The notes: generated from the letters alone by a model not told the origin. DNA of 64,000 nucleotides from Escherichia coli (GCF_002854065.1 NZ_CP024147.1), one strand, 5' to 3'. Shown: positions 1,389 through 40,604, numbered from the stretch's first letter. Numbers and translations: made by a program.

Positions 1389-1451
1389 ATTTAATAGGTG
1401 ATGCTGCCAACTTACTGATTTAGTGTATGATGGTGTTTTTGAGGTGCTCCA

Positions 1452-1727
1452 GTGGCTTCTGTTTCTATCAGCTGTCCCTCCTGTTCAGCTACTGACGGGG
1501 TGGTGCGTAACGGCAAAAGCACTGCCGGACATCAGCGCTATCTCTGCTCTCACTGCCGTAAAACATGGCAACTGCAGTTCACTTACACCGCTTCTCAACC
1601 CGGTACGCACCAGAAAATCATTGATATGGCCATGAATGGCGTTGGATGCCGGGCAACCGCCCGCATTATGGGCGTTGGCCTCAACACGATTTTCCGCCAT
1701 TTAAAAAACTCAGGCCGCAGTCGGTAA
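1452..1727 (+). CDS. insA: IS1 InsA (transposition repressor)
   Basis: 91-aa [19 protein letters not shown]... zinc-finger/HTH typical of InsA. Confidence 0.95.
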
Positions 1728-2149
1728 CCTCGCGCATACAGCCGGGCAGTGACGTCATCGTCTGCGCGGAAATGGACGAACAGTGGGGATACGTCGGGGC
1801 TAAATCGCGCCAGCGCTGGCTGTTTTACGCGTATGACAGGCTCCGGAAGACGGTTGTTGCGCACGTATTCGGTGAACGCACTATGGCGACGCTGGGGCGT
1901 CTTATGAGCCTGCTGTCACCCTTTGACGTGGTGATATGGATGACGGATGGCTGGCCGCTGTATGAATCCCGCCTGAAGGGAAAGCTGCACGTAATCAGCA
2001 AGCGATATACGCAGCGAATTGAGCGGCATAACCTGAATCTGAGGCAGCACCTGGCACGGCTGGGACGGAAGTCGCTGTCGTTCTCAAAATCGGTGGAGCT
2101 GCATGACAAAGTCATCGGGCATTATCTGAACATAAAACACTATCAATAA
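1646..2149 (+). CDS. insB: IS1 InsB (transposase catalytic part, expressed as InsAB' by -1 frameshift)
   Basis: 167-aa ORF in -1 frame relative to insA, overlapping its 3' end. Confidence 0.93.
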
Positions 2150-2164
2150 GTTGGAGTCATTACC

Positions 2165-2665
2165 GAGTTTTTCTCTTTCTTCTGCCCACACTGCTATCAG
2201 TTTGAAGAAGTTCTGCATATTTCTGATAATGTGAAGAAAAAACTGCCGGAAGGCGTGAAGATGACTAAATACCACGTCAACTTCATGGGTGGTGACCTGG
2301 GCAAAGATCTGACTCAGGCATGGGCTGTGGCGATGGCGCTGGGCGTGGAAGACAAAGTGACTGTTCCGCTGTTTGAAGGCGTACAGAAAACCCAGACCAT
2401 TCGTTCTGCTTCTGATATCCGCGATGTATTTATCAACGCAGGTATTAAAGGTGAAGAGTACGACGCGGCGTGGAACAGCTTCGTGGTGAAATCTCTGGTC
2501 GCTCAGCAGGAAAAAGCTGCAGCTGACGTGCAATTGCGTGGTGTTCCGGCGATGTTTGTTAACGGTAAATATCAGCTGAATCCGCAGGGTATGGATACCA
2601 GCAATATGGATGTTTTTGTTCAGCAGTATGCTGATACAGTGAAATATCTGTCCGAGAAAAAATAA
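2165..2665 (+). pseudogene. dsbA: Partial duplicate of dsbA (3' 501 nt, lacks start codon and signal peptide)
   Basis: Near-identical to window 838-1338 (one synonymous difference ccg/cca in CPHC codons); begins abruptly at IS1 right end. Confidence 0.9.
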
Positions 2666-2683
2666 TTCAATGTAAATTACATA

Positions 2684-2715
2684 AAGCCCGTGAATATTCA
2701 CGGGCTTTTTTTATT
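2684..2715 (+). terminator. Duplicated copy of dsbA terminator
   Basis: Same hairpin plus T-run as 1357-1388. Confidence 0.75.
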
Positions 2716-2819
2716 ATTTAATAAATATAAATACATTCTGATAATGCATCCTGCCGCTGGACATTATTTCAGCATAAGTGGATATTCAAAGTTTTGCTGT
2801 TTTATCAGGGAATATTTAT

Positions 2820-4250
2820 ATGATACGTAAGTCAGCTACAGGTGTTATTGTTGCGTTAGCCGTAATCTGGGGTGGTGGCACATGGTACACAGGTACGCAA
2901 ATTCAGCCTGGTGTCGAAAAATTTATTAAAGATTTTAACGATGCTAAAAAGAAAGGTGAACATGCCTACGATATGACGTTAAGTTATCAAAATTTTGACA
3001 AAGGCTTTTTTAATTCCCGTTTTCAAATGCAAATGACATTCGATAACGGTGCACCTGATCTCAATATCAAGCCAGGCCAGAAAGTTGTATTTGATGTGGA
3101 TGTTGAGCACGGTCCGTTGCCCATCACAATGTTAATGCATGGTAATGTCATCCCAGCACTGGCAGCGGCAAAAGTGAACTTAGTGAATAATGAACTGACA
3201 CAACCGCTATTTATCGCCGCGAAAAATAAATCGCCCGTGGAAGCGACATTGCGATTCGCGTTTGGTGGCTCATTCTCCACGACATTAGATGTTGCCCCTG
3301 CAGAGTATGGAAAATTCTCTTTTGGTGAAGGCCAGTTTACTTTTAATGGTGATGGTAGTTCATTGTCTAACCTGGATATTGAAGGCAAAGTCGAAGATAT
3401 TGTTCTGCAATTTTCACCAATGAACAAAGTAACGGCAAAAAGTTTTACCATTGATTCTCTGGCGCGATTAGAAGAAAAGAAATTTCCGGTTGGTGAAAGC
3501 GAGTCGAAATTTAATCAGATTAACATTATCAATCACGGGGAAGACGTTGCCCAAATCGATGCTTTCGTTGCAAAAACCAGGCTGGATCGCGTTAAAGACA
3601 AAGATTATATCAATGTCAATCTGACCTACGAACTTGATAAGTTAACAAAAGGGAATCAGCAACTCGGTAGTGGTGAGTGGTCATTGATTGCTGAATCTAT
3701 TGATCCCTCAGCAGTGCGCCAATTTATCATCCAGTATAACATTGCGATGCAGAAGCAGCTTGCTGCACACCCTGAATTAGCAAACGATGAAGTTGCTCTG
3801 CAAGAAGTGAATGCTGCATTGTTCAAAGAGTATTTACCGTTATTACAACAAAGTGAGCCGACCATTAAACAACCGGTAAGATGGAAGAACGCACTCGGCG
3901 AACTAAATGCCAATCTGGATATCAGTATTGCCGACCCAGCCAAATCTTCATCATCCACAAACAAAGATATCAAATCGCTCAATTTTGATGTGAAGTTACC
4001 GCTTAATGTCGTCACAGAAACCGCAAAACAGCTTAATTTATCTGAAGGAATGGATGCGGAAAAAGCGCAAAAGCAGGCTGATAAACAAATCAGCGGGATG
4101 ATGACATTAGGTCAGATGTTTCAGTTAATCACGATTGACAACAATACCGCCTCGCTGCAGCTGCGTTATACACCGGGTAAAGTTGTTTTTAACGGACAGG
4201 AGATGAGCGAAGAAGAATTTATGTCTCGTGCCGGACGTTTTGTTCATTAA
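2820..4250 (+). CDS. yihF: DUF945-family protein YihF
   Basis: Long ORF downstream of dsbA, N-terminal hydrophobic segment; start chosen at MIRKSATGV; position matches E. coli yihF. Confidence 0.85.
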   Translation: MIRKSATGVIVALAVIWGGGTWYTGTQIQPGVEKFIKDFNDAKKKGEHAYDMTLSYQNFDKGFFNSRFQMQMTFDNGAPDLNIKPGQKVVFDVDVEHGPLPITMLMHGNVIPALAAAKVNLVNNELTQPLFIAAKNKSPVEATLRFAFGGSFSTTLDVAPAEYGKFSFGEGQFTFNGDGSSLSNLDIEGKVEDIVLQFSPMNKVTAKSFTIDSLARLEEKKFPVGESESKFNQINIINHGEDVAQIDAFVAKTRLDRVKDKDYINVNLTYELDKLTKGNQQLGSGEWSLIAESIDPSAVRQFIIQYNIAMQKQLAAHPELANDEVALQEVNAALFKEYLPLLQQSEPTIKQPVRWKNALGELNANLDISIADPAKSSSSTNKDIKSLNFDVKLPLNVVTETAKQLNLSEGMDAEKAQKQADKQISGMMTLGQMFQLITIDNNTASLQLRYTPGKVVFNGQEMSEEEFMSRAGRFVH

Positions 4251-4290
4251 AATACTCACTCGCCTCTGCTCATTCAGAGGCGAGCAAAAT

Positions 4291-5223
4291 TTACTTGTCC
4301 TGCCGCTGTGATGACATCAACGACGTCAGAAGTCGGTCTTTTTCCTGCCACAATGAGTTCAGCCATTGCTGAAAATGGCGCTTAAAGCTTTTGTCATTGA
4401 TGTAGTCGCCATGTAACTCATCGGCAATAGGCTGTAAATCCACATGTACGACAATCCGCGTCAGTTTACCGCTTAACATATCGAAGAACGGCTGACGGTT
4501 ATTGTCCGGATAACACAACGTAACATTAAGCAGTTTATCGAATTGTTTACCCAGTACATTTAGCGCCATCGCAATGCCTGCCGCCTTTGGTGGCAACAAG
4601 TTTTGGAAAGTGGAGTGGGTTTGCTGATGTTTTTCTTGCGTGAAACGGGAGCCTTCAACGAAATTGACAATGGTGGTGGGATGCAGGCGAAACTTTTCAC
4701 AAGAACGCCGAGTGGTTTCAACATCTTTACCACGTCGCTCCGGATGACGTAATAAATAAGCGCGGGAATAACGCTTCATAAACGGCATATCCAGCGCCCA
4801 GCACGCCAGGCCAAGAAATGGCACCCAGGCCAGCTGTTGCTTGAGGAAATATTTATTCATCGGAATGTGCTTACGAAACAGCACGCACAGTACGACAATA
4901 TCTGCCCAACTACGGTGGTTACAAATAAGCAGATACCAGTTCTTCTTACTTAACCCTTCCAGCCCGTGAACTTCCCATTGCAGGTGTGGGTTCAGATGCA
5001 GTAATACCGCCAGACCTTCACACCAGCAATACATCATAAAATCACAAAAACGCGAAACCTTTCGCCAAATGACTGGCACAGGTAGCAATAGTTTTACAAT
5101 CCCGGCAATGATGATCGGGACGGAGCAAAAAATAGTGACCAAAATGGTCAATACGATACTCAGCAAAAGGGTTATCGCAGCGAGTATTCTCGTCATAATG
5201 AATTTATTCAAAAGGTTAGCCAT
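4291..5223 (-). CDS. yihG: Putative acyltransferase YihG (PlsC-like)
   Basis: ORF with N-terminal TM segments and NHRSWADIV acyltransferase motif; start chosen at MANLLNKF. Confidence 0.85.
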
Positions 5224-5586
5224 AGACAGTGCGCTAAAGAAGCGCAAGGCGCAGATTTTAGCAGAAAACGACCCAAATAACGGATGATCCTTAAGGAGAA
5301 AAATAATTCATATCTATCCACATTAGAAAAAATCCCATTATCTCAATTATTAGGGATGGCTTTATTTTTAACTGCATGAAAAACAAAGACAAACATCATG
5401 CTGTAAAAAGCATGATAATAAATTAAAAGCGATGTAAATAATTTATGCACAAAGTTATCCACATGACGATTTGCGAGCGATCCAGAAGATCTACAAAAGA
5501 TTTTCACGAAAAGCGGTGAAAAACTCATGTTTTTATCCTGTCTGTGGCATCCTTTACCCATAATCTGATAAACAGGCACGGACATT

Positions 5587-8373
5587 ATGGTTCAGATCCC
5601 CCAAAATCCACTTATCCTTGTAGATGGTTCATCTTATCTTTATCGCGCATATCACGCGTTTCCTCCGCTGACTAACAGCGCAGGCGAGCCGACCGGTGCG
5701 ATGTATGGTGTCCTCAACATGCTGCGCAGTCTGATCATGCAATATAAACCGACGCATGCAGCGGTGGTCTTTGACGCCAAGGGAAAAACCTTTCGTGATG
5801 AACTGTTTGAACATTACAAATCACATCGCCCGCCAATGCCGGACGATCTGCGTGCACAAATCGAACCCTTGCACGCGATGGTTAAAGCGATGGGACTGCC
5901 GCTGCTGGCGGTTTCTGGCGTAGAAGCGGACGACGTTATCGGTACTCTGGCGCGCGAAGCCGAAAAAGCCGGGCGTCCGGTGCTGATCAGCACTGGCGAT
6001 AAAGATATGGCGCAGCTGGTGACGCCAAATATTACGCTTATCAATACCATGACGAATACCATCCTCGGACCGGAAGAGGTGGTGAATAAGTACGGCGTGC
6101 CGCCAGAACTGATCATCGATTTCCTGGCGCTGATGGGTGACTCCTCTGATAACATTCCTGGCGTACCGGGCGTCGGTGAAAAAACCGCGCAGGCATTGCT
6201 GCAAGGTCTTGGCGGGCTGGATACGCTGTATGCCGAGCCAGAAAAAATTGCTGGGTTGAGCTTCCGTGGCGCGAAAACAATGGCAGCGAAGCTCGAGCAA
6301 AACAAAGAAGTTGCTTATCTCTCATACCAGCTGGCGACGATTAAAACCGACGTTGAACTGGAGCTGACCTGTGAACAACTGGAAGTGCAGCAACCGGCAG
6401 CGGAAGAGTTGTTGGGGCTGTTCAAAAAGTATGAGTTCAAACGCTGGACTGCTGATGTCGAAGCGGGCAAATGGTTACAGGCCAAAGGGGCAAAACCCGC
6501 CGCGAAGCCACAGGAAACCAGTGTTGCAGACGAAGCACCAGAAGTGACGGCAACGGTGATTTCTTATGACAACTACGTCACCATCCTTGATGAAGAAACA
6601 CTGAAAGCGTGGATTGCGAAGCTGGAAAAAGCGCCGGTATTTGCATTTGATACCGAAACCGACAGCCTTGATAACATCTCTGCTAACCTGGTCGGGCTTT
6701 CTTTTGCTATCGAGCCAGGCGTAGCGGCATATATTCCGGTTGCTCATGATTATCTTGATGCGCCCGATCAAATCTCTCGCGAGCGTGCACTCGAGTTGCT
6801 AAAACCGCTGCTGGAAGATGAAAAGGCGCTGAAGGTCGGGCAAAACCTGAAATACGATCGCGGTATTCTGGCGAATTACGGCATTGAGCTGCGTGGGATT
6901 GCGTTTGATACCATGCTGGAGTCCTACATTCTCAATAGCGTTGCTGGCCGTCACGATATGGACAGCCTCGCAGAACGTTGGTTGAAGCACAAAACCATCA
7001 CTTTTGAAGAGATTGCGGGTAAAGGCAAAAATCAACTGACCTTTAACCAGATTGCCCTCGAAGAGGCCGGACGTTACGCCGCCGAAGATGCAGATGTCAC
7101 CTTGCAGTTGCATCTGAAAATGTGGCCGGATCTGCAAAAACACAAAGGGCCGTTGAACGTCTTCGAGAATATCGAAATGCCGCTGGTGCCGGTGCTTTCA
7201 CGCATTGAACGTAACGGTGTGAAGATCGATCCGAAAGTGCTGCACAATCATTCTGAAGAGCTTACCTTGCGTCTGGCTGAGCTGGAAAAGAAAGCGCATG
7301 AAATTGCAGGTGAGGAATTTAACCTTTCTTCCACCAAGCAGTTACAAACCATTCTGTTTGAAAAACAGGGCATTAAACCGCTGAAGAAAACGCCGGGTGG
7401 CGCGCCGTCAACGTCGGAAGAGGTACTGGAAGAACTGGCGCTGGACTATCCGTTGCCAAAAGTGATTCTGGAGTATCGTGGTCTGGCGAAGCTGAAATCG
7501 ACCTACACCGACAAGCTGCCGCTGATGATCAACCCGAAAACCGGGCGTGTGCATACCTCTTATCACCAGGCAGTAACTGCAACGGGACGTTTATCGTCAA
7601 CCGATCCTAACCTGCAAAACATTCCGGTACGTAACGAAGAAGGTCGCCGTATCCGCCAGGCGTTTATTGCGCCAGAGGATTATGTGATTGTCTCAGCGGA
7701 CTACTCGCAGATTGAACTGCGCATTATGGCGCATCTCTCGCGTGACAAAGGCTTGCTGACCGCATTCGCGGAAGGAAAAGATATCCACCGGGCAACGGCG
7801 GCAGAAGTGTTTGGTTTGCCACTGGAAACCGTCACCAGCGAGCAACGCCGTAGCGCGAAAGCGATCAACTTTGGTCTGATTTATGGCATGAGTGCTTTCG
7901 GTCTGGCGCGGCAATTGAACATTCCACGTAAAGAAGCGCAGAAGTACATGGACCTTTACTTCGAACGCTACCCTGGCGTGCTGGAGTATATGGAACGCAC
8001 CCGTGCTCAGGCGAAAGAGCAGGGCTACGTTGAAACGCTGGACGGACGCCGTCTGTATCTGCCGGATATCAAATCCAGCAATGGTGCTCGTCGTGCAGCG
8101 GCTGAACGTGCAGCCATTAACGCGCCAATGCAGGGAACCGCCGCCGACATTATCAAACGGGCGATGATTGCCGTTGATGCGTGGTTACAGGCTGAGCAAC
8201 CGCGTGTACGTATGATCATGCAGGTACACGATGAACTGGTATTTGAAGTCCATAAAGATGATGTCGATGCCGTCGCGAAGCAGATTCATCAACTGATGGA
8301 AAACTGTACCCGTCTGGATGTGCCGTTGCTGGTGGAAGTGGGGAGTGGCGAAAACTGGGATCAGGCGCACTAA
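5587..8373 (+). CDS. polA: DNA polymerase I
   Basis: 928-aa ORF with 5'-3' exonuclease, 3'-5' exonuclease and polymerase motifs; DnaA-box-like ttatccaca in upstream region. Confidence 0.98.
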
Positions 8374-8520
8374 GATTCGCCTGAACATGCCCTTTTTTCG
8401 TAAGTAAGCAACATAAGCTGTCACGTTTTGTGATGGCTATTAGAAATTCCTATGCAACAACTGAAAAAAAATTACAAAAAGTGCTTTCTGAACTGAACAA
8501 AAAAGAGTAAAGTTAGTCGC

Positions 8521-8629
8521 GTAGGGTACAGAGGTAAGATGTTCTATCTTTCAGACCTTTTACTTCACGTAATCGGATTTGGCTGAATATTTTAGCCGCC
8601 CCAGTCAGTAATGACTGGGGCGTTTTTTA
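8521..8629 (+). ncRNA. spf: Spot 42 small RNA
   Basis: Sequence gtagggtacagaggtaagatgttctatctttcagacc...gccccagtcagtaatgactggggcgtttttta matches Spot 42 including its terminator. Confidence 0.93.
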
Positions 8630-8650
8630 TTGGGCGAAAGAAAAAATCCG

Positions 8651-8740
8651 CAATGCCTGATGCGCCATGTTTATCAGGCCAACGGTAGAATTGTAATCTA
8701 TTGAATTTACGGGCCGGATACGCCACATCCGGCACAAGCA
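8651..8740. repeat. REP (repetitive extragenic palindromic) elements
   Basis: gcctgatgcgc...cttatcaggcc and gccggata...catccggc palindromic units. Confidence 0.8.
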
Positions 8741-8754
8741 TTAAGGCAAGAAAA

Positions 8755-9387
8755 TTATTCGCCGTCCTGCGTTTCTTCTACAGGCTGCATCTCGCTAAAC
8801 CAGGTATCCAGTTTCTGCCGCAGCTTGTCCACGCCTTGTTTCTTCAGCGAAGAAAACGTTTCAACCTGCACATCACCGTTAAACGCCAGCACCGCTTCAC
8901 GCACCATATTCAATTGCGCTTTACGTGCGCTACTTGCCAGTTTGTCCGCTTTGGTCAGCAGTACCAACACGGCGATATTGCTGTCTACCGCCCACTCAAT
9001 CATCTGCTGATCCAAATCTTTCAGCGGATGGCGAATATCCATTAGCACTACCAGACCTTGTAGGCTCTGACGTTTTTCGAGGTACTCGCCGAGCGCGCGC
9101 TGCCATTTGCGCTTCATCTCTTCCGGGACTTCCGCATAACCGTACCCAGGCAAGTCAACCAGACGCTTGCCGTCAGCCACTTCAAACAGGTTGATAAGCT
9201 GGGTGCGTCCTGGGGTTTTTGAGGTACGAGCCAGGCTTTTCTGGTTAGTCAGCGTGTTCAGCGCGCTGGATTTACCTGCGTTGGAACGGCCTGCAAAAGC
9301 CACTTCAATTCCGGTATCGGAAGGTAGGTGGCGAATATCAGGCGCACTCATCACAAAATGCGTCTGTTGATAATTCAAATTAGTCAA
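8755..9387 (-). CDS. engB: Ribosome biogenesis GTPase EngB (YihA)
   Basis: 210-aa ORF with [10 protein letters not shown]-loop and G-domain motifs. Confidence 0.95.
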
Positions 9388-9657
9388 AGCGGTCGTCTCC
9401 GTCAGTCAAAGCTTTGTGGCGATTATACCTGAACCATAATAAAAGGCGGATTTTTCGGCGTGAGCGTTGTAAGTAAAAGCCATACGCTTTGTGAGACATT
9501 GCCGATAGTCTTTATGCGAAATAGCAGAGAAAATTCTGCGATGCATGTCAAATAAGCTATATAAATCAGTGAATTGCTTTTATATAAAACTCTGAAAATG
9601 TGCAAATACTGATGGCGGTTGATTGTTTGTTTAAAGCAAAGGCGTAAAGTAACACCC

Positions 9658-9900
9658 ATAGAGCGAGGACGCTAACAGGAACAATGACTCAGGATGAGGG
9701 TCAGGAGCGCCAGGAGGCGAAGACAGAGGATTGTCAGGAAGACAAACGTCCGGAGACGTAATTAAACGGAAATGGAATCAACACGGATTGTTCCGGCTAA
9801 TGGAAAAACAGGGTGTGTTGGCGGCCTGCAAGGATTGTAAGACCCGTTAAGGGTTATGAGTCAGGAAAAAAGGCGACAGAGTAATCTGTCGCCTTTTTTC
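9658..9900 (+). ncRNA. csrC: CsrC small RNA (CsrA-sequestering)
   Basis: About 245 nt with many GGA/AGGA motifs, ending in hairpin aaggcgacagagtaatctgtcgcc plus T-run; located between engB and yihI. Confidence 0.85.
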
Positions 9901-9968
9901 TTTGCTTGCTTTCTGTTAGATTCCGCCGCAAATCTATACTGAATAAAACGGCTAAAAGACGAACCATT

Positions 9969-10475
9969 ATGAAACCATCTTCACCATCACGCAGCAAAGG
10001 TCATGCAAAAGCGCGTCGCAAAACGCGCGAAGAGCTGAATCAGGAAGCTCGTGACCGCAAGCGTCAGAAAAAACGTCGTGGTCATGCGCCGGGCAGCCGC
10101 GCAGCGGGCGGTAACACCACGTCAGGCAGCAAAGGCCAGAACGCACCAAAAGATCCACGTATTGGCAGTAAAACCCCTATTCCATTGGGCGTGACTGAAA
10201 AAGTCACCAAACAGCACAAACCGAAGAGTGAGAAACCTATGCTTTCACCGCAGGCGGAGTTGGAATTACTGGAAACGGATGAGCGTCTGGATGCGCTGCT
10301 GGAACGTCTGGAAGCAGGCGAAACCCTGAGTGCCGAAGAGCAATCCTGGGTGGATGCTAAACTGGATCGTATTGATGAGTTGATGCAGAAACTCGGCCTC
10401 TCTTATGACGATGACGAAGAAGAGGAAGAAGACGAGAAGCAAGAAGACATGATGCGTCTGCTGCGGGGCAACTAA
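9969..10475 (+). CDS. yihI: Der GTPase-activating protein YihI
   Basis: Basic N-terminus [18 protein letters not shown], acidic C-terminus. Confidence 0.92.
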
Positions 10476-10663
10476 CGGATTGCCGCCGTGGGCCTTCCCG
10501 TTCTGCTGATAACCCTTCCGGTTATATGTTATCTGGTGTGGTTATTCGTTAAACTACAGCGGTTGTCGCGGCGACAAAAGTGGCTGCGCAACCGGCTGAT
10601 GACCCGAAACGGGCATCCGCCGGTACGCCGTAGCCGCCAGAGACGCCATCGGAAGGAGTGAGC

Positions 10664-12037
10664 ATGTCTGTACAGCAAATCGACTGGGATCTGGCCCTGA
10701 TCCAGAAATATAACTATTCCGGGCCACGATACACCTCGTACCCGACCGCGCTGGAGTTTTCAGAAGACTTCGGCGAACAGGCGTTTTTACAAGCCGTGGC
10801 GCGCTATCCTGAGCGTCCATTATCTCTCTACGTACATATCCCGTTCTGCCATAAGCTTTGTTACTTCTGCGGTTGCAATAAGATTGTTACTCGCCAGCAG
10901 CACAAGGCCGATCAGTATCTGGACGCGCTGGAGCAAGAAATCGTCCATCGTGCACCGCTGTTCGCCGGGCGTCACGTCAGCCAGCTGCACTGGGGCGGTG
11001 GAACGCCGACGTATCTGAATAAAGCGCAAATCAGCCGCCTGATGAAGCTGCTGCGCGAAAACTTCCAGTTCAATGCCGATGCGGAGATTTCGATCGAAGT
11101 CGATCCGCGGGAAATCGAACTGGATGTACTCGATCATTTACGCGCCGAAGGCTTTAATCGCCTGAGCATGGGCGTGCAGGACTTCAACAAAGAAGTGCAA
11201 CGTCTGGTTAACCGCGAGCAGGATGAAGAGTTCATCTTTGCACTGCTTAACCATGCGCGTGAGATTGGTTTTACCTCCACCAACATCGACCTGATTTACG
11301 GCCTGCCGAAACAGACGACGGAGAGTTTCGCCTTTACCCTGAAACGTGTGGCGGAGCTGAACCCCGATCGTCTGAGTGTCTTTAACTACGCGCATCTGCC
11401 GACCATTTTTGCTGCTCAGCGCAAAATCAAAGATGCTGACCTGCCGAGTCCGCAGCAAAAACTCGATATCCTGCAGGAAACCATCGCCTTCCTGACGCAA
11501 TCGGGCTATCAGTTTATCGGTATGGATCACTTTGCCCGTCCGGATGACGAGCTGGCAGTGGCCCAGCGTGAAGGCGTGCTGCATCGTAACTTCCAGGGCT
11601 ACACCACTCAGGGCGATACCGATCTGCTGGGGATGGGCGTTTCCGCTATCAGCATGATTGGCGACTGCTACGCGCAGAACCAGAAAGAGTTGAAGCAGTA
11701 CTATCAGCAAGTGGATGAACAAGGCAATGCGCTGTGGCGTGGTATTGCGCTAACGCGTGATGACTGTATTCGCCGCGATGTGATTAAGTCGCTCATCTGC
11801 AACTTCCGTCTGGATTACGCCCCTATTGAGAAACAGTGGGATTTGCACTTCGCTGATTACTTTGCGGAAGATCTCAAGCTGCTCGCCCCGTTAGCAAAAG
11901 ATGGGCTGGTGGATGTGGATGAGAAGGGAATACAGGTTACGGCGAAAGGTCGCTTGCTGATCCGCAACATTTGCATGTGCTTTGATACCTATCTGCGCCA
12001 GAAAGCGCGGATGCAGCAGTTCTCTCGGGTGATTTAA
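10664..12037 (+). CDS. hemN: Oxygen-independent coproporphyrinogen III oxidase (radical SAM)
   Basis: 457-aa ORF with CxxxCxxC radical-SAM motif (CHKLCYFCGC). Confidence 0.96.
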   Translation: MSVQQIDWDLALIQKYNYSGPRYTSYPTALEFSEDFGEQAFLQAVARYPERPLSLYVHIPFCHKLCYFCGCNKIVTRQQHKADQYLDALEQEIVHRAPLFAGRHVSQLHWGGGTPTYLNKAQISRLMKLLRENFQFNADAEISIEVDPREIELDVLDHLRAEGFNRLSMGVQDFNKEVQRLVNREQDEEFIFALLNHAREIGFTSTNIDLIYGLPKQTTESFAFTLKRVAELNPDRLSVFNYAHLPTIFAAQRKIKDADLPSPQQKLDILQETIAFLTQSGYQFIGMDHFARPDDELAVAQREGVLHRNFQGYTTQGDTDLLGMGVSAISMIGDCYAQNQKELKQYYQQVDEQGNALWRGIALTRDDCIRRDVIKSLICNFRLDYAPIEKQWDLHFADYFAEDLKLLAPLAKDGLVDVDEKGIQVTAKGRLLIRNICMCFDTYLRQKARMQQFSRVI

Positions 12038-12102
12038 ATAGTGAATGGCGCTTCGTTTACAAAGTAGAAAACGAAAGCGCCATCAATGTGCTGAGAACAA
12101 GA

Positions 12103-12200
12103 TTGCCTGATGCGCTACGCTTATCAGGCCTACAAAACCTGTTGAAAATATTGCTTTTGTAGACCGGATAAGGCGTTCACGCCGCATCCGGCATGAACAA
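12103..12200. repeat. REP elements
   Basis: Palindromic gcctgatgcgctacgcttatcaggcc / gccggataaggcg...catccggc units. Confidence 0.8.
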
Positions 12201-12226
12201 AGAGCACTTCATCAGCAATCTGAAAC

Positions 12227-12337
12227 TCAACTAAACAGCCCAATCATCGCGGCACACAGCACGGCAGCAACGGCAGTTTGCGGTGTGTGGCTGTCAACTG
12301 CGCCACTCGATACCAGATTAATTATTGATTCCAGCAT
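12227..12337 (-). CDS. yshB: Small membrane protein YshB (36 aa)
   Basis: Reverse-strand translation MLESIINLVSSGAVDSHTPQTAVAAVLCAAMIGLFS. Confidence 0.7.
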   Translation of the reverse strand: MLESIINLVSSGAVDSHTPQTAVAAVLCAAMIGLFS

Positions 12338-12448
12338 AATGACTCTCCCCGTTTTCCGGGCAAGATCATACTGAACTTATCGGAACAGTAAAGCGCAAAA
12401 TACCAGCAATTTGCGCTCAATAATCAATCTTTACACACAAGCCGTGAA

Positions 12449-13858: not shown

Positions 13859-13869
13859 AAACGTCACCT

Positions 13870-14919: not shown

Positions 14920-15092
14920 AAAGCAGTCTCCTGAACAGGTTGCACCATTTTAGTGCATTATAGCTTTTTACGGATAAAAAGCGCGAAGCATCAGAGAATT
15001 GACGGAGAAAAAAGCCCATGCAGAGATGGGCTGAAAGTTTCCACGGCAACTAAATCCCGGCGTTGTTGCGCCGGGTAGTACAACTTCAACTA

Positions 15093-16502: not shown

Positions 16503-16582
16503 ACTTTAACTCTCCTGGATTGGTCATTGTCGTCGTGGTAACGAAATCTGCAATTATTTTGGCCGTGTCGCCGTAAAAAAGA

Positions 16583-16604
16583 TAAAGCGAAAACTGTGCC
16601 AACT
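16583..16604 (-). promoter_or_regulatory. glnAp2 sigma-54 promoter (-24 GG / -12 GC)
   Basis: Reverse strand reads TTGGCACAGTTTTCGCTTTATC, a sigma-54 -24/-12 consensus. Confidence 0.8.
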
Positions 16605-16654
16605 TTTAAATTGCCCCTAAAAGGCGTTATCATGCTTAACATCGTGCAAAAGGG

Positions 16655-18914: not shown

Positions 18915-19550
18915 ATGGCGGAGAATCAATCCACCGTAGAAAATGCAAAAGAGAAACTGGATCGGTGGTTGAAAGATGGCATCACCACGCCGGGTGGAAA
19001 ACTCCCTTCAGAAAGAGAGCTGGGAGAACTGCTGGGCATTAAACGTATGACGCTGCGCCAGGCGTTGTTGAACCTCGAGGCAGAATCCAAAATCTTCCGT
19101 AAGGATCGTAAGGGGTGGTTCGTGACCCAGCCGCGATTTAATTACAGTCCGGAGCTGTCGGCGAGCTTTCAGCGGGCCGCAATTGAGCAAGGGCGAGAGC
19201 CTTCCTGGGGGTTTACCGAGAAAAACCGTACCAGCGATATTCCCGAGACGCTCGCGCCACTGATTGCAGTGACGCCATCAACTGAACTCTATCGCATCAC
19301 CGGCTGGGGGGCGCTGGAAGGACATAAAGTTTTCTATCACGAAACATATATTAATCCTGAAGTTGCTCCGGGCTTTATTGAACAACTTGAAAACCACTCA
19401 TTTTCTGCAGTCTGGGAAAAGTGCTACCAAAAAGAGACGGTAGTAAAAAAATTGATTTTCAAACCCGTCAGAATGCCGGGCGATATCAGCAAGTATCTTG
19501 GCGGTTCTGCGGGTATGCCAGCGATATTAATTGAAAAGCATCGCGCCGAC
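18915..19550 (+). pseudogene. yihL: yihL (GntR/UTRA-type regulator), 3'-truncated by IS1
   Basis: ORF reads through into IS1 left end (last 8 codons GDAANLLI are IS1-encoded). Confidence 0.8.
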
Positions 19551-19605
19551 GGTGATGCTGCCAACTTACTGATTTAGTGTATGATGGTGTCTTTGAGGTG
19601 CTCCA

Positions 19606-19881
19606 GTGGCTTCTGTTTCTATCAGCTGTCCCTCCTGTTCAGCTACTGACGGGGTGGTGCGTAACGGCAAAAGCACTGCCGGACATCAGCGCTATCTCTG
19701 CTCTCACTGCCGTAAAACATGGCAACTGCAGTTCACTTACACCGCTTCTCAACCCGGTACGCACCAGAAAATCATTGATATGGCCATGAATGGCGTTGGA
19801 TGCCGGGCAACCGCCCGCATTATGGGCGTTGGCCTCAACACGATTTTCCGCCATTTAAAAAACTCAGGCCGCAGTCGGTAA
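19606..19881 (+). CDS. insA: IS1 InsA
   Basis: Identical 91-aa product. Confidence 0.95.
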
Positions 19882-20303
19882 CCTCGCGCATACAGCCGGG
19901 CAGTGACGTCATCGTCTGCGCGGAAATGGACGAACAGTGGGGATACGTCGGGGCTAAATCGCGCCAGCGCTGGCTGTTTTACGCGTATGACAGGCTCCGG
20001 AAGACGGTTGTTGCGCACGTATTCGGTGAACGCACTATGGCGACGCTGGGGCGTCTTATGAGCCTGCTGTCACCCTTTGACGTGGTGATATGGATGACGG
20101 ATGGCTGGCCGCTGTATGAATCCCGCCTGAAGGGAAAGCTGCACGTAATCAGCAAGCGATATACGCAGCGAATTGAGCGGCATAACCTGAATCTGAGGCA
20201 GCACCTGGCACGGCTGGGACGGAAGTCGCTGTCGTTCTCAAAATCGGTGGAGCTGCATGACAAAGTCATCGGGCATTATCTGAACATAAAACACTATCAA
20301 TAA
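19800..20303 (+). CDS. insB: IS1 InsB
   Basis: Identical 167-aa product. Confidence 0.93.
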
Positions 20304-20318
20304 GTTGGAGTCATTACC

Positions 20319-21306
20319 GCCGGGGTATTGGGGCATCCTCTTTGTCTGGGCGCTATTTGGCGTTACTTGCGACATGATGAACTGGCCGGTCTTACTCAAG
20401 TCGGTAAGTCGATTGGGCAATAGCGAACAACAAGGTCGGTTGTTTGGCTTCTTCGAAACAGGGCGTGGCATTGTCGATACCGTGGTGGCATTTTCTGCGT
20501 TGGCAGTATTTACCTGGTTTGGCAGTGGCTTATTGGGTTTTAAAGCAGGCATCTGGTTCTATTCCCTTATTGTGATTGCCGTAGGCATTATTATTTTCTT
20601 TGTCCTGAATGACAAAGAAGAGGCACCGTCCGTTGAGGTGAAAAAAGAAGACGGAGCATCGCAAAACACCAGTATGACCTCGGTGCTGAAAGACAAAACT
20701 ATCTGGCTTATCGCTTTCAACGTCTTCTTCGTTTACGCGGTTTACTGTGGCCTGACATTCTTCATTCCATTCCTGAAAAACATCTATCTATTGCCCGTTG
20801 CGCTGGTGGGGGCTTACGGCATCATTAACCAATACTGTCTGAAAATGATTGGTGGACCGATTGGTGGCATGATTTCAGATAAGATCCTGAAATCGCCGAG
20901 TAAATATCTATGCTACACCTTTATCATCAGTACCGCTGCGCTCGTACTGTTGATTATGCTGCCGCACGAAAGTATGCCGGTCTATTTAGGGATGGCATGT
21001 ACGCTGGGCTTTGGCGCGATAGTCTTTACACAGCGAGCCGTATTTTTTGCACCTATCGGCGAAGCAAAAATTGCTGAAAATAAAACAGGCGCGGTGATGG
21101 CGTTGGGTAGCTTTATTGGTTACGCCCCGGCGATGTTCTGCTTTAGTCTGTATGGCTACATTCTGGATTTAAATCCGGGGATTATTGGCTACAAAATCGT
21201 GTTTGGCATTATGGCCTGCTTCGCATTCTGTGGTGCGGTGGTTTCCGTAATGCTGGTTAAGCGTATTAGCCAACGTAAGAAAGAGATGCTGGCGGCTGAA
21301 GCTTAA
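20319..21306 (+). pseudogene. yihN: MFS transporter YihN, 5'-truncated (C-terminal ~330 codons only)
   Basis: Multi-TM ORF begins directly at IS1 right end with no native start; matches C-terminal part of yihN. Confidence 0.75.
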
Positions 21307-21427
21307 TTAATGGCCGGATGTGCTTAATCCGGCCAAAAAAAATCCGCTGAATCCCCAGCGGATTTTTCGAAGTTTCAATTTCAGGATACTTCTTGCTCGG
21401 CAACTACCAGTTCAACATTCTCTTCAC

Positions 21428-21790
21428 TTAACAACTGGCAGAAAGAATTGGGAGGCGGGGCATCAGTAAAAAAAGCCCTGACATTCCGTGCATTGCCAAC
21501 GCTACCGCGCCGTGAAAAACATCGCCTGCTCCAGTCGTATCAACCACATTGACAGAAAATGCATCCTGTTGACACAAATGATCATCTTTAATCCACAATG
21601 AATCTTCAGAACCCAGCGTGACATACACTTTACCCGCAGTTTGTGTCGTTGCCTGGTACAAACCTTCTTCAGGTGACTGCAGGCCAGTCATGCGTTTCCG
21701 CCCTGGCGTTGAGAACACGGCGTGATCAGTAAGCGCGACAAGTGGATAAATATCCTGCGGTGTCATATCGTCGCTGGTTATCGAAACTCG
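21428..21790 (-). pseudogene. Remnant of pfkB-family sugar kinase (yihV-like sulfofructose kinase)
   Basis: Reverse-strand ORF contains VDTTGAGDVFHGA pfkB signature but lacks N-terminal half and has a non-native C-terminus. Confidence 0.55.
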
Positions 21791-21955
21791 TTGGCAATTT
21801 ACACCTGAATCTTAACCATTCATCTATTGCGAAAAAGCCAGTGAAATTACTCTGCTTTTTCGCAATCAGCATCACAAGATTACCCTTATTGCCACATAGC
21901 CAAACCCATCCTTTCCCGCTACAGTTAATTTCTTGTGGCGCGAAAGGAGGCAAAA

Positions 21956-35450: not shown

Positions 35451-36506
35451 ATGAAAAGGAATTTATTATCTTCCGCTATTATAGTCGCCATCATGGCCCT
35501 CGGTCTGACGGGTTGTGATGATAAAAAAGCCGAAACAGAAACGCCCCCGCCTGCCAATAGTCAACCTGCCGCACCAGCTCCTGAAGCGAAACCTACTGAA
35601 GCTCCCGTTGCAAAAGCAGATGCTAAACCTGAAACACCTGCGCAACCGGTGGTCGATGAACAAGCGGTTTTCGACGAAAAAATGGATGTCTATATCAAGT
35701 GCTACAACAAGTTACAGATCCCTGTACAGAACAGTCTGGCGCGTTATGCTGACTGGCTGAAAGATTTTAAACAGGGGCCAACGGGTAAAGAGAGCCTTGT
35801 TTATGGCATCTACGGCATTAGTGAATCCAATCTCTCTGAGTGTCAAAAAGGAATAAAAAGAGTCGTGGCGTTAACGCCTGCGCTGCAACCTATTGATGGC
35901 GTGGCGGTGAGTTATATTGATGCTGCCGTGGCGTTGGGTAATACCATTAACGAAATGGATAAATATTACACCCAGGAAAATTATAAAGACGATGCGTTTG
36001 CGAAAGGGAAAACGCTGCACCAGACATTCTTAAAAAATCTGGAAGCCTTTGAACCTGTAGCAGAATCTTATCATGCGGCGATTCAGGAAATTAATGATAA
36101 GCGCCAGCTTGCGGAACTGAAAAATATTGAAGAAAGAGAAGGGAAAACATTCCACTACTACTCTCTGGCAGTCATGATTTCAGCGAAACAAATTAATAAC
36201 CTGATATCGCAAGAGAAGTTTGATGTTGATGCGGCAATGAAGAAAGTCTCTGAACTGGAAACGCTGGTAGCGCAGGCCAAAGAAGCGGATAAAGGCGGTA
36301 TGAATTTCTCGTTCATTAATTCGGCAGACCAGTATCAACTCGAGACTAAAAAATATGTTCGCCGCGTCAGAGATAAAGTCCCGTACTCTGACTGGGATAA
36401 AGAGCATCTTCAGGATGCAAACACAAGCTGGATGGTCGAAGACTCATTTCCACGAGCGTTACGCGAGTACAACGAAATGGTTGATGACTATAATAGCCTG
36501 CGTTAA
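35451..36506 (+). CDS. yiiG: Lipoprotein YiiG (DUF3829)
   Basis: 351-aa ORF with lipobox LTGC. Confidence 0.9.
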   Translation: MKRNLLSSAIIVAIMALGLTGCDDKKAETETPPPANSQPAAPAPEAKPTEAPVAKADAKPETPAQPVVDEQAVFDEKMDVYIKCYNKLQIPVQNSLARYADWLKDFKQGPTGKESLVYGIYGISESNLSECQKGIKRVVALTPALQPIDGVAVSYIDAAVALGNTINEMDKYYTQENYKDDAFAKGKTLHQTFLKNLEAFEPVAESYHAAIQEINDKRQLAELKNIEEREGKTFHYYSLAVMISAKQINNLISQEKFDVDAAMKKVSELETLVAQAKEADKGGMNFSFINSADQYQLETKKYVRRVRDKVPYSDWDKEHLQDANTSWMVEDSFPRALREYNEMVDDYNSLR

Positions 36507-36556
36507 ACGTTTTTGATGATAAATGCAGTGTCGGATGCGGCGCATCCGACACAGTT

Positions 36557-36993
36557 CACCCCTTGTGAAGTAACTCCATAAATGCCTCATATCCTGTTAA
36601 CCCGGCAATAACTTCTGCCGGATGCTGACACAATACGCTTGCCAGATAGCTGAATATTTTTAGCTCATGACGCGCATCGGCGGCGGCGCAGGCGATCAAA
36701 ACATGGTTAATGACTTCGTTATTCACCTCAACTGATTGGGCGAGGGTAATAAAAAATCCACGAAAACGTCGCTCCTGTTCGCTCCAGCAATGTGGGATGG
36801 CGAGGCGATTAACAATCAGGTTTTCACCTTCGCCTTCGCGGGCGATGATCCGTTGCGCTTCATCGGCGGTAATATGGTGTTGTGCGACTAATTGCGCACA
36901 AATTTGCCGGGTAATATGTTGCCAGCTTTCACCGCGTACATTCGAATAATGAAAACTTCCGGGGGCAGAGAAAAAACGCTCCGGTTGCTGGCG
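36557..36993 (-). pseudogene. frvR: frvR C-terminal fragment (PTS EIIA-like domain), 5' part removed by IS1
   Basis: Reverse-strand translation ...LIACAAADARHELKIFSYLASVLCQHPAEVIAGLTGYEAFMELLHKG*; interrupted by IS1 at 36994. Confidence 0.7.
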
Positions 36994-37008
36994 GGTAATG
37001 ACTCCAAC

Positions 37009-37512
37009 TTATTGATAGTGTTTTATGTTCAGATAATGCCCGATGACTTTGTCATGCAGCTCCACCGATTTTGAGAACGACAGCGACTTCCGTCCCAGCC
37101 GTGCCAGGTGCTGCCTCAGATTCAGGTTATGCCGCTCAATTCGCTGCGTATATCGCTTGCTGATTACGTGCAGCTTTCCCTTCAGGCGGGATTCATACAG
37201 CGGCCAGCCATCCGTCATCCATATCACCACGTCAAAGGGTGACAGCAGGCTCATAAGACGCCCCAGCGTCGCCATAGTGCGTTCACCGAATACGTGCGCA
37301 ACAACCGTCTTCCGGAGCCTGTCATACGCGTAAAACAGCCAGCGCTGGCGCGATTTAGCCCCGACGTATCCCCACTGTTCGTCCATTTCCGCGCAGACGA
37401 TGACGTCACTGCCCGGCTGTATGCGCGAGGTTACCGACTGCGGCCTGAGTTTTTTAAATGGCGGAAAATCGTGTTGAGGCCAACGCCCATAATGCGGGCG
37501 GTTGCCCGGCAT
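37009..37512 (-). CDS. insB: IS1 InsB
   Basis: Identical 167-aa product on minus strand. Confidence 0.93.
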
Positions 37513-37706
37513 CCAACGCCATTCATGGCCATATCAATGATTTTCTGGTGCGTACCGGGTTGAGAAGCGGTGTAAGTGAACTGCAGTTGCCATGTTTTAC
37601 GGCAGTGAGAGCAGAGATAGCGCTGATGTCCGGCAGTGCTTTTGCCGTTACGCACCACCCCGTCAGTAGCTGAACAGGAGGGACAGCTGATAGAAACAGA
37701 AGCCAC
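37431..37706 (-). CDS. insA: IS1 InsA
   Basis: Identical 91-aa product on minus strand. Confidence 0.95.
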
Positions 37707-37761
37707 TGGAGCACCTCAAAAACACCATCATACACTAAATCAGTAAGTTGGCAGCATCACC

Positions 37762-39063
37762 ATACGTCCCGAGGTAAATATTAAAGTTCTCCATATCCAT
37801 CACATTAGCGAACTGATAAGACGCATGAATGGTGTGAATGGTGTACGTCCCTTCATCATCAATCCAGCAGTCGTTATCACAAACTACACCGCTGAATTCA
37901 TCAATCTTATTGTGCGCGTAGATATAACCGAGCTCGAAACGTTTCCACAGCGCGTTAATCCCGGCAGTGAAATCTTTCTCATTATTAGCATCTAAATAGG
38001 CGGTATTAAGATTAACCACAATGCCATTGTCCGGATCCGTTTTCAGGCCGTTCCAGGTCATGCTCATACCATAGCCGGTACGATCGGACTGATCGACAAA
38101 ATTACCCTTGCTATCGGTATAACCATAAGCATTATTTACCACGTTCGCTTCCATCGCTGCGGAAACGGTGAATTCTTCCGTCGGCGACCAGGCAATTACT
38201 GGGCGCAGATAAGCAACATTTTTCTGCTGCTCCATATCGCGTCCATGATAATTACCGTCATTATATAAAGATGTTCCGTCTTCAAGTAACGTATTTAATT
38301 CAAAATACCAGTTATCGAGTTGTTTGCTGACGAGGAAATTACCGCCAGCGTTAGAGCGCCCGCGGCCCTCTTTCATCATATAGATATAACCGCTGCCATC
38401 GTCATAAAGATCGTTCGCAGTATTACCGGAATGTTCAACAAAGGTATCCTGATTCAGCGGGAACATATCGTAGGCTTCAAAACGGCCTACTTTGACCTTC
38501 CAGTCGTTTTCTTTGCCAAAGAAGAATACCGCATCATCGATATTTACTGAACCGTGCATATCACCCAGCGGTTGTGCGGAGAACCCGGCGAAATAACCGT
38601 TGTCCATCTTTCGCATACCGTCAAAACCTAACAGAATACGACCATTGAGATTCCACTGTTCATTAGTGGGATCGCTATTCACATCAGCGTTGGTCATTGC
38701 CAGCAGGCCATGATTACTTTCCGCATCCATATTAAATTCTACGTCGCCGTAGATTTTTAAATCGCCATAACCTGAAAGCAAAAGATTAGGTGAGGTGGCA
38801 TTTTTCTTTGCAGATTCCGTCGTTGCCTGTCCATTTACCGGCGTATTGCCCTGAGCGGCCTTAATTTCGCGGATCTCAGCGGCTTGTTGTGTCTGCAGCT
38901 GTTTAACCTGGCTCTCTGCTTTTGCTGCCCGCATTTCTGCCGCTTCCAGGCGTTCTTCCAGCAATGCCATGCGTTGTTCCAGCGTTAAATGCTGTGTTTT
39001 TGCCATACCGGTACTACATGCCAATAATAAACCGATGGCTAAAGATAATGTCGATTTTTTCAT
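37762..39063 (-). pseudogene. LamB/ScrY-family carbohydrate porin with N-terminal coiled-coil extension, 3'-truncated by IS1
   Basis: Signal peptide MKKSTLSLAIGLLLA, coiled-coil LEQRMALLEERLEAAEMRAAKAESQVKQLQ, then aromatic-rich beta-barrel-like sequence; ORF runs into IS1 (terminal GDAANLLI is IS1-encoded). Confidence 0.6.
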
Positions 39064-39540
39064 TATTTACGTTCCCTGAAATAAAGGAGGCCCTACGCTT
39101 TCCAAAAGGAATACGTATATAGAGAAATATAAAGTGTGCACTTTCGAATTTTTAATCCAACTTCAGCAGGCCGATGGATAGTATCCCGCCGCATAATATG
39201 AGTAAATCCGCTGATTTCCTGGAACGTGAGGAATATAACAATAGTGCCGTTTTTAACTAAATATCGTAAAAAATATTAGATATGATTCACGCTGACTCAT
39301 AAGCCACAAATATAAATAATGTTTAGACAAATTATCTGAGACATTTAAACATTCACAAAATCATTAAAGAATGATTTTTTATTCACAAGATTTATTTTAC
39401 CTACTAATATGTGCCTTACGCCGCAAAATTTATCCTTCACTCTGCTTTATATTGTCACGACTTCACGACATATCCGCGCTCATCACAAACCCGCCCCGCT
39501 ATTACAATTAACGTAAATATTTTTTCATGGAGTCCGATTA

Positions 39541-39694
39541 ATGGCAGCTCTTACTGCAAGCTGTATTGACCTGAATATTCAGGGCAATGGCACTTATTCC
39601 ATTCTGAAACAGTTAGCGACAATGGCGTTACAAAACGGTTTTATCACCGACTCACACCAGTTCCTGCAAACCCTGCTGCTGCGCGAAAAAATGC
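39541..39694 (+). pseudogene. frvA: frvA 5' fragment (PTS fructose-like EIIA), truncated by IS1 and on opposite strand from frvR fragment
   Basis: Translation MAALTASCIDLNIQGNGTYSILKQLATMALQNGFITDSHQFLQTLLLREKM then IS1. Confidence 0.75.
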
Positions 39695-39749
39695 GGTGAT
39701 GCTGCCAACTTACTGATTTAGTGTATGATGGTGTTTTTGAGGTGCTCCA

Positions 39750-40025
39750 GTGGCTTCTGTTTCTATCAGCTGTCCCTCCTGTTCAGCTACTGACGGGGTG
39801 GTGCGTAACGGCAAAAGCACTGCCGGACATCAGCGCTATCTCTGCTCTCACTGCCGTAAAACATGGCAACTGCAGTTCACTTACACCGCTTCTCAACCCG
39901 GTACGCACCAGAAAATCATTGATATGGCCATGAATGGCGTTGGATGCCGGGCAACCGCCCGCATTATGGGCGTTGGCCTCAACACGATTTTCCGCCATTT
40001 AAAAAACTCAGGCCGCAGTCGGTAA
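39750..40025 (+). CDS. insA: IS1 InsA
   Basis: Identical 91-aa product. Confidence 0.95.
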
Positions 40026-40447
40026 CCTCGCGCATACAGCCGGGCAGTGACGTCATCGTCTGCGCGGAAATGGACGAACAGTGGGGATACGTCGGGGCTA
40101 AATCGCGCCAGCGCTGGCTGTTTTACGCGTATGACAGGCTCCGGAAGACGGTTGTTGCGCACGTATTCGGTGAACGCACTATGGCGACGCTGGGGCGTCT
40201 TATGAGCCTGCTGTCACCCTTTGACGTGGTGATATGGATGACGGATGGCTGGCCGCTGTATGAATCCCGCCTGAAGGGAAAGCTGCACGTAATCAGCAAG
40301 CGATATACGCAGCGAATTGAGCGGCATAACCTGAATCTGAGGCAGCACCTGGCACGGCTGGGACGGAAGTCGCTGTCGTTCTCAAAATCGGTGGAGCTGC
40401 ATGACAAAGTCATCGGGCATTATCTGAACATAAAACACTATCAATAA
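39944..40447 (+). CDS. insB: IS1 InsB
   Basis: Identical 167-aa product. Confidence 0.93.
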
Positions 40448-40604
40448 GTTGGAGTCATTACCGGGACGTATTACTCCATTCTGGATAGCGACGGCGATAA
40501 AAAACACGGTGATGATACTGATGACCGTTACGGCGCACGCGTTCGCTTTAAATACTTCTTCTGATGAAGGCGCGGTGCTGGATATTTTCCGGCACCGCAA
40601 CTCA

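Follow-up and report, generated by a model that had tools for sequence, protein, structure and literature searches.

Four copies of the insertion sequence (IS) IS1 lie in a 64,000-nucleotide stretch of Escherichia coli DNA (GCF_002854065.1, NZ_CP024147.1), here called the window. Very probably, they record ordinary IS1 rearrangements of dispensable sugar loci in a clone that is IS1-expanded but otherwise an ordinary E. coli. The net outcome is the loss of cryptic or accessory carbohydrate genes and not general genome decay. Lost from the window are a cryptic phosphotransferase system operon and a glycoporin gene, plus a regulator, an enzyme and a transporter of unknown role, while all 52 other K-12 genes located wholly inside it are full-length, without frameshift or stop (the UGA at codon 196 of fdoG is its selenocysteine codon). 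IS1-driven remodelling of this kind is biology already known, and current understanding remains unchanged. The single real oddity is the first copy, c1, located at a proven IS1 hotspot and yet accompanied by a duplication of 559 bp instead of 9 bp.

Four IS1 copies at rearrangement junctions

A repeat search identified four full-length 768-bp IS1 elements in the window (c1 to c4, Table 1), in agreement with an earlier note on this DNA that had placed four copies between positions 1397 and 40462. That note described them as identical. Alignment showed that this is true for c1, c3 and c4, but c2 differs by one base (T>C at position 41), upstream of insA. The T41C exchange is private to the window genome; the orthologous copy in two close relatives, 100416 and CUWW06, has a T. 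All four copies have an intact insA gene (91 aa) and an intact insB frame (167 aa), and the translations are identical, as had been claimed, the sole single nucleotide polymorphism (SNP) being located outside the genes. The element carries the A6C programmed −1 frameshift motif (TTTAAAAAAC) and is bordered by imperfect terminal inverted repeats, of which the left one (IRL) reads GGTGATGCTGCCAACTTACTGAT and the right one (IRR), as reverse complement, GGTAATGACTCCAACTTATTGAT. Its nucleotide identity to an IS1B-type copy of K-12 is 99.9%, which ruled out a Shigella-specific iso-IS1 as its identity. In the relatives, the orthologous copies are labelled 'IS1B family transposase, programmed frameshift' by the Prokaryotic Genome Annotation Pipeline (PGAP).

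For IS1, target site duplications (TSDs) of 8–9 bp have been documented (PMC12428005). No direct 8- or 9-bp repeat flanks any of c1 to c4, and to this extent the earlier statement that target duplications are missing was correct. It overlooked, however, a 9-mer that is split as an inverted pair between c3 and c4, as well as the 559-bp repeat at c1. The 8–9-bp trait of the family is recognizable in this split 9-mer and in the canonical 9-bp TSDs found at six of nine complete copies sampled in CUWW06. The region covered by the window is rich in rearranged copies: a 9-bp TSD was found at 0/4 copies here and at 0/3 in the same region of CUWW06. With K-12 as the reference for the junction map, and by comparison with the relatives, we could confirm that each of the four copies is located at the junction of a deletion, an inversion or a duplication.

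The relatives 100416 (human stool, Gambia, 5.08 Mb) and CUWW06 (wastewater, Thailand, 4.65 Mb) are both 99.97% identical to the window, with 14 mismatches in 41.5 kb and 9 mismatches in 39 kb, respectively.

Inversion and deletion at the frv locus

The segment bracketed by c3 (minus strand) and c4 (plus strand) has its genes in reverse order with respect to yiiG and rhaM, as a comparison with 33F4 and 100416 showed. Strain 33F4, which shows the uninterrupted arrangement rhaM-porin-frvABXR-yiiG, served as the reference for this locus. Within 37762–39694 only positions 39391–39694 match K-12 (4092972–4092670, reversed). The 9-mer GGGACGTAT, the target T, is found outside c4 and its reverse complement inside, beside c3, and the site is single-copy in both 100416 and 33F4. 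Judged from the sequence, a T split into an inverse pair in this way is what intramolecular replicative transposition in trans typically leaves behind; for IS26, matched TSDs on different IS copies have been taken as evidence of this reaction (He et al., 2015, PMC4471558). In addition, 4,125 bp are deleted, extending from nucleotide 155 of frvA to nucleotide 1311 of frvR and covering the 3′ part of frvA, frvB, frvX and the 5′ part of frvR.

The most economical order of events, as we infer it, is insertion at T, inversion and then deletion. In a first step, IS1 would have inserted at T (GGGACGTAT) in the RafY-type porin gene. A duplicative inversion into frvR would have followed, either through transposition in trans or through an additional IS1 insertion with subsequent recombination of the inverted copies. 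Finally, a deletion starting from the IRL of c4 would have removed the 4,125 bp and, with them, the second copy of the frvR target. This scheme predicts an intermediate with the full 6-kb inverted segment, having TTGCTGGCG at one side and the reverse complement at the other.

The c3–c4 structure was found in none of 5,426 complete E. coli genomes. A 442-aa open reading frame (ORF) that fuses porin and IS1 was present in 72 index blocks, only on contigs shorter than 10 kb. Among 22 contigs read that encode this junction protein, five were aligned in full and correspond with 100% identity to IS1(IRL)-1933 bp-IS1(IRL); contigs of this structure stem from gut metagenomes and from NCBI assemblies. 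Three Logan contigs from three runs (L008, L009 and L015) match the window by 100% from the porin-IS1 junction up to the exact frvA breakpoint and then continue into an intact frvA, L008 ending 6 bp from the frvR breakpoint. The frvA allele of these three contigs differs by approximately 3% from that of the clone-mate 100416, and the frv operon was mosaic among strains in all comparisons. The contigs fit the idea that insertion at T came first, but they are suggestive only. Their use as proof of the undeleted intermediate was dropped in view of the mosaic frv operon and the 3% allele difference.

The RafY-type glycoporin gene between frvA and rhaM does not occur in K-12. In many unrelated E. 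coli, among them derivatives of B strains, it is interrupted by IS1, the position of which varies, and it looks like a frequent casualty of IS1.

The two relatives differ from the window and from each other at this locus. In 100416 the frv operon is present with a frameshifted frvB, T is uninterrupted in the porin gene and the frvR′-IS1 junction does not exist; a different IS1 (IS1A-type, 5 mismatches) is located elsewhere in the porin gene, together with a 646-bp deletion. In CUWW06, frv and the region of T are deleted and the frvR′-IS1 (IRR) junction is identical to that of the window, but the IRL of this IS1 adjoins rhaT, a 10-kb deletion equivalent to window positions 37762–47921. Thus, frv, the porin gene and the whole rha operon up to rhaT have disappeared from the shared frvR IS1 onwards. 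This could represent a separate IRL-side deletion from c3 reaching rhaT, that is, an alternative in cis outcome. Deletion in one sister genome and inversion in the other would then have started at one and the same fixed IS1 junction. CUWW06 also contains an IS1 of its own between fabY and yiiF, with a 3.2-kb deletion. Altogether, CUWW06 and the window show at least four IS1 structural differences against 9 mismatches in 39 kb. Since the window, 100416 and CUWW06 share some junctions and differ at others, IS1 events are ongoing in the clone.

Table 1. IS1 copies, flanking features and correspondence to K-12. Positions are those of the window unless another sequence is named.
Feature	Position	Strand	Remarks
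srkA′ to dsbA downstream region	1–1396		K-12 4042707–4044102; srkA′, intact dsbA, 58 bp downstream
Left repeat copy	838–1396		K-12 4043544–4044102, dsbA codon 43 to 58 bp past the stop; within and after intact dsbA (712–1338)
c1	1397–2164	+	IS1, 58 bp downstream of the dsbA stop, just past the terminator
Right repeat copy	2165–2723		5′-truncated dsbA′ (codons 43–208, to 2665) and terminator, then normal yihF upstream region
Collinear region right of c1	2165 onward		K-12 restarts at 4043544 (dsbA codon 43); collinear to yihL nt 636
yihL′ (GntR-type regulator)	18915–19550	+	last 75 bp gone; adjoins IRL of c2; partial pseudogene annotation in relatives
c2	19551–20318	+	IS1 with private T41C SNP
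yihN′ (major facilitator superfamily transporter)	20319–21306	+	first 278 bp gone
Remnant replacing sulfoquinovose cluster	21343–21888		546 bp in place of K-12 4063549–4075485, 11.9 kb (ompL-yihO...csqR)
Low-GC insertion	25316–27361		2 kb between fabY and yiiE; no K-12 equivalent
Collinear region left of c3	up to 36993		K-12 up to 4088544, ending in frvR′
frvR′, 3′ remnant	36556–36993	−	438 bp; ends at K-12 4088544; adjoins IRR of c3; same junction in CUWW06
c3	36994–37761	−	IS1; IRR end toward frvR′, IRL end toward inverted porin
ATACGTCCC	37762–37770		reverse complement of 9-bp target T; inner flank of c3
Inverted segment	37762–39694		1,933 bp; porin lacking its 3′ end, intergenic region, frvA′
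RafY-type glycoporin gene	37762–39063	−	without 3′ end; ORF runs 27 nt into IS1; Pfam Porin_8
frvA′	39541–39694	+	first 154 nt
c4	39695–40462	+	IS1; IRL adjoins frvA nt 154, IRR adjoins T
Target T, GGGACGTAT	40463–40471		9-mer; outer flank of c4
Porin 3′ remnant	40463–40564	+	approximately 102 bp, beside rhaM; coordinates transferred from intact porin in 33F4 (L007 6908–7009)
Region between c4 and rhaM	40463–40603		141 bp; no K-12 equivalent
rhaM to glpX-glpK intergenic region	40604–63183		collinear with K-12 4093123–4115696; then glpK′ to 64000
IS1 copies of CUWW06 in the syntenic region	L001 24696–25463 and 34256–35023		

Deletion between yihL and yihN

The second copy, c2, replaces 1,442 bp of K-12 (4061083–4062524), which comprise the 3′ end of yihL, yihM and the 5′ end of yihN. 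Both junctions were found in identical form in 100416 and CUWW06 only (two of the 5,426 genomes), and exact-pattern scans for them in the GTDB representatives and the metagenomes of the Joint Genome Institute (JGI) gave no match. Most likely, c2 marks an IS1-associated 1.4-kb deletion, which would be the oldest of the events and common to all three genomes. The yihL-yihN interval carries IS1 in many strains.

A 559-bp duplication around c1

A perfect 559-bp direct repeat brackets c1 (838–1396 = 2165–2723). After the IRR of c1, the 559 bp from dsbA codon 43 through TATTTAATA are repeated, and only then does the normal downstream sequence follow. Both dsbA and the upstream region of yihF have thus remained intact despite c1. 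Neither c1 nor the 559-bp repeat is present in 100416 or CUWW06. In VTB97585v, an IS1A-type copy occupies this very site in the orientation of c1 and is flanked by the canonical TSD TATTTAATA; because of this canonical insertion, the c1 site can be regarded as a natural hotspot. The 9 bp to the right of the IRR of c1 (GAGTTTTTC) begin with G, as do the six canonical TSDs in CUWW06.

Further observations concern this site. The AT-rich 9-mer TATTTAATA (window 1388–1396, L031 2051–2059) is a recurrent IS1 target just past the dsbA terminator, and in an unrelated isolate from chicken another IS1 variant is inserted behind dsbA at precisely this base, with no difference in orientation. A dsbA-IS1 query matched 12 genomes with at least 80% coverage, and the eight listed all have IS1 annotated beside dsbA. 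A look-up of the truncated DsbA′ (144 aa) retrieved only frameshifted dsbA genes of unrelated assemblies, with no IS1 context.

Long repeats flanked none of 11 other IS1 copies without TSD, which ruled out such repeats as a general trait of TSD-less IS1; of the 15 complete IS1 copies with inspected flanks, one had such a repeat. By our own reasoning, replicative transposition between sisters, reintegration of a deletion circle and a double inversion could be rejected, since each of them predicts two IS1 copies (A-IS-X-IS-X-B or similar), unlike the structure of c1. This leaves three routes: a strand transfer at points 559 bp apart or to both sister duplexes, a recombination of two insertion alleles, and an assembly error. 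We tentatively propose the first of these, namely that c1 arose by one aberrant IS1 transposition in which the transposon ends were joined to target strands at a distance of 559 bp or, behind a replication fork, to the two sister duplexes, although we would not rate it as the probable course of events. In the overall scheme, c1 would be the youngest event, a hotspot insertion with its ends attached at points 559 bp from each other or on different sister duplexes, and this is the least certain step.

Expansion of IS1 in the lineage

Of the 5,426 complete E. coli genomes, 4,970 contain IS1, and the median per genome is 11 places. A high IS1 number is no rarity in E. coli: 388 records have at least 40 IS1 matches, and 100416 and CUWW06 each have at least 40. 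From the species median, approximately 0.14 copies are expected per 64 kb, and the probability of four or more is approximately 1e-5 by our own Poisson estimate.

To estimate the load of the lineage, CUWW06 was sampled systematically (8 × 50 kb, 400 kb). The sample contained 10 IS1 copies, all of them 100% identical to the window element. This extrapolates to approximately 116 IS1 copies per genome (Poisson 95% range 56–214) or approximately 1.6 per 64 kb. At this density four copies in 64 kb are unremarkable (P of approximately 0.08, own Poisson estimate), and c3 and c4 belong to one lineage of events. The density of IS1 is therefore far above that of a typical E. coli, as the earlier note had said, when the species median is taken as the standard, but not within the clone's own lineage. 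The recent expansion postulated in that note is borne out by the 10/10 identical copies, and the low genome-wide count of under about 10, which it had considered as the opposite case, does not apply to a lineage with the loads found here. Most probably, one IS1 variant has recently multiplied to approximately 100 copies in the clone and is still moving.

Alternative explanations

Several points weigh against our reading. The c1 junctions had no match in the JGI metagenomes, the GTDB representatives or the 5,426 E. coli genomes, so that c1 is without independent confirmation, and we know of no report of IS1 duplicating hundreds of base pairs. No second copy of the frvR target is present, which a later deletion would explain at the cost of an extra step. 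The three Logan contigs may represent the undeleted intermediate, but also another lineage with the porin::IS1 allele, or they may be chimeric. The IS1 count and the pathotype assigned to the clone of the window were drawn from two relatives, 100416 and CUWW06. Finally, the one-step transposase route and insertion followed by homologous recombination lead to the same final sequence.

The last point leads to the strongest alternative, which is a real possibility even if we lean to the other side: RecA-dependent homologous recombination between independently inserted IS1 copies, and not intramolecular transposition, would have made the rearrangements. An inverted pair of copies would have given the inversion, direct pairs the deletions, and two insertion alleles at dsbA the X-IS1-X structure of c1. 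The c3/c4 structure is exactly as expected from insertion at T, with its TSD, and recombination with an inverted copy, and the same alternative has been raised by He and co-workers (He et al., 2015, PMC4471558). The three contigs with IS1 at T and an intact frvA point in the same direction, as do both flanks of c1, the IRL flank being the canonical hotspot junction and GAGTTTTTC beside the IRR starting with G like the six TSDs of CUWW06. However, recombination needs more insertions, two for each deletion and, for c1, two alleles in one cell, and neither 100416 nor CUWW06 shows an intermediate in which the deleted DNA still lies between two IS1 copies. Moreover, both adjacent deletions and replicative intrachromosomal transposition are documented for IS1 (PMC4471558, PMC12428005). 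Replicative movement within the chromosome was found in 210 of 210 mutants (PMC12428005), replicative deletions by IS1 go back to Turlan and Chandler (1995), as cited in He et al. (2015, PMC4471558), and the deletion beside the IS1-family element ISKpn14 has been described as an in cis outcome (He et al., 2015, PMC4471558).

According to the earlier note, the window belongs to a Shigella-type or otherwise host-restricted lineage in IS-driven decay, with widespread pseudogenization elsewhere in the genome. This inference was reasonable because expansion of IS1 has been reported in Shigella and in the enteroinvasive E. coli (EIEC) sequence types ST6 and ST270; the median of total IS is 118 in EIEC ST6 and 164 in ST270, compared with 32 in E. 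coli chromosomes (Hawkey et al., 2020, PMC7373316). The estimated IS1 load of approximately 116 is within the range reported for EIEC and Shigella, all samples with junctions of the lineage are from human gut or sewage where the source is known, and CUWW06 has approximately 7 IS-interrupted genes per 400 kb. Nevertheless, we consider such a lineage improbable. DNA of ipaB-ipaC-ipaD (pCP301) matched nine of the 5,426 genomes, and neither 100416 nor CUWW06 was among them, which ruled out a Shigella or EIEC identity of the relatives. The predicted genome-wide pseudogenization was not seen: none of the 52 non-junction genes in the window is a non-IS pseudogene, and point-mutation pseudogenes account for approximately 5–6 of about 370 sampled features of CUWW06 (approximately 1.5%). 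The fliF-R (flagellar), gad/hde (acid resistance), bcs (cellulose), chu (haem uptake), hyb (hydrogenase) and glc loci are intact in the CUWW06 sample. IS2, IS4, IS600 and IS911 were not annotated in this sample or in the 42-kb syntenic region of CUWW06; only one IS5 and one IS26 occurred in the two together. With 5.08 Mb the genome of 100416 is not reduced, the IS1 variant is 99.9% K-12-like, and 388 E. coli records likewise have at least 40 IS1 matches. Of the traits of Shigella and EIEC decay, the lineage shows IS1 at approximately 100 or more copies, by extrapolation from CUWW06, but no ipaBCD match indicative of the invasion plasmid pINV in the two relatives, no co-expansion of other IS in the sampled parts of CUWW06 and no pseudogene burden in the window or in the CUWW06 sample.

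An assembly artefact, in which one IS1 was pasted into several gaps and the c1 repeat is an untrimmed contig overlap bridged by IS1, would be consistent with the 100% identity of the two 559-bp copies and with the finding of c1 and its repeat nowhere else, but is highly improbable, as c2, the frvR′-c3 junction and both inner c3/c4 junctions recur in independent assemblies, the flanks of each copy are unique and have plausible positions on the K-12 map, c2 has its own SNP, and the boundaries of the repeat match the IS1 termini to the base, the left one being a proven natural insertion site, which an overlap does not predict. The four copies are thus very probably not assembly duplicates of one element, a possibility mentioned in the earlier note, c1 being the only one for which such confirmation is missing.

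Other features of the window

The sulfoquinovose cluster has been replaced by a short remnant at a junction where no IS is present. According to the annotation in the relatives, this remnant contains fragments of a PfkB kinase and of DeoR, and a query with the junction was matched with at least 80% coverage in only 38 of the 5,426 genomes. The low-GC insertion contains an intact ORF of 615 aa (25218–27065, plus strand) with no sequence match in Pfam, NCBIfam or PDB. Its CKSAKDRT stretch (CX5R motif) resembles the IpgD/SopB phosphoinositide phosphatase signature. In 100416, PGAP splits the sequence of this ORF into a 'hypothetical (partial)' and a 'transposase' feature; in CUWW06 it has been lost by the IS1-associated 3.2-kb deletion. 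The rhaD-rhaA intergenic region (41791–42196) contains a tandem array with a period of approximately 92 bp, for which K-12 shows self-matches at several offsets. Downstream of glnA, in the glnZ area (15033–15080), 48 bp are found compared with 160 bp in K-12.

Implications and comparison with known systems

The window provides a natural example of an IS1 burst that remodels a chromosome faster than point mutation does. A high IS1 load and absent TSDs are not by themselves a sign of a Shigella-like decaying genome. Only the 559-bp duplication at c1 would add mechanistic knowledge, and only if it is confirmed. In that case, IS1 would have duplicated a small gene fragment in one step while sparing the neighbouring genes, and it would have made a long target duplication of a kind so far described only for the unrelated IS1634/IS1549.

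Like Shigella and EIEC, the lineage shows a large recent expansion of a resident IS1 allele, IS variation within the clone and loss of carbohydrate genes. It differs from them in that its relatives have no ipaBCD match, that co-expansion of IS2, IS4, IS600 and IS911 was not seen and that motility and core metabolism are intact.

Insertion of IS1634/IS1549 elements gives long direct repeats of variable length (8–514 bp), for which no mechanism has been proposed (De Palmenaer et al., 2008, PMC2266710), and our literature search on long TSDs from IS1 revealed nothing bacterial apart from these elements. As there, a long direct target duplication (559 bp) adjoins both ends of a complete IS, c1, without a single base in between, but the family and transposase of c1, those of IS1, are unrelated, and the likeness is one of outcome only.

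The element itself resembles IS1 of K-12 in its length of 768 bp, its imperfect terminal inverted repeats, insA/insB and the A6C site, and most identical copies in CUWW06 have a 9-bp TSD. In contrast, the lineage of the window has approximately 100 copies compared with six in K-12 BW25113 (PMC12428005), and the local four are all without a simple flanking TSD.

The products of IS26 and ISKpn14 are a close parallel to c3 and c4. The events here differ in being chromosomal and layered, inversion and then deletion, with both transposition and recombination as possible routes. They share with those products the splitting of the target between inverted IS copies that bracket an inverted segment, as well as one-sided deletions that begin precisely where an IS ends and leave the opposite junction unchanged.

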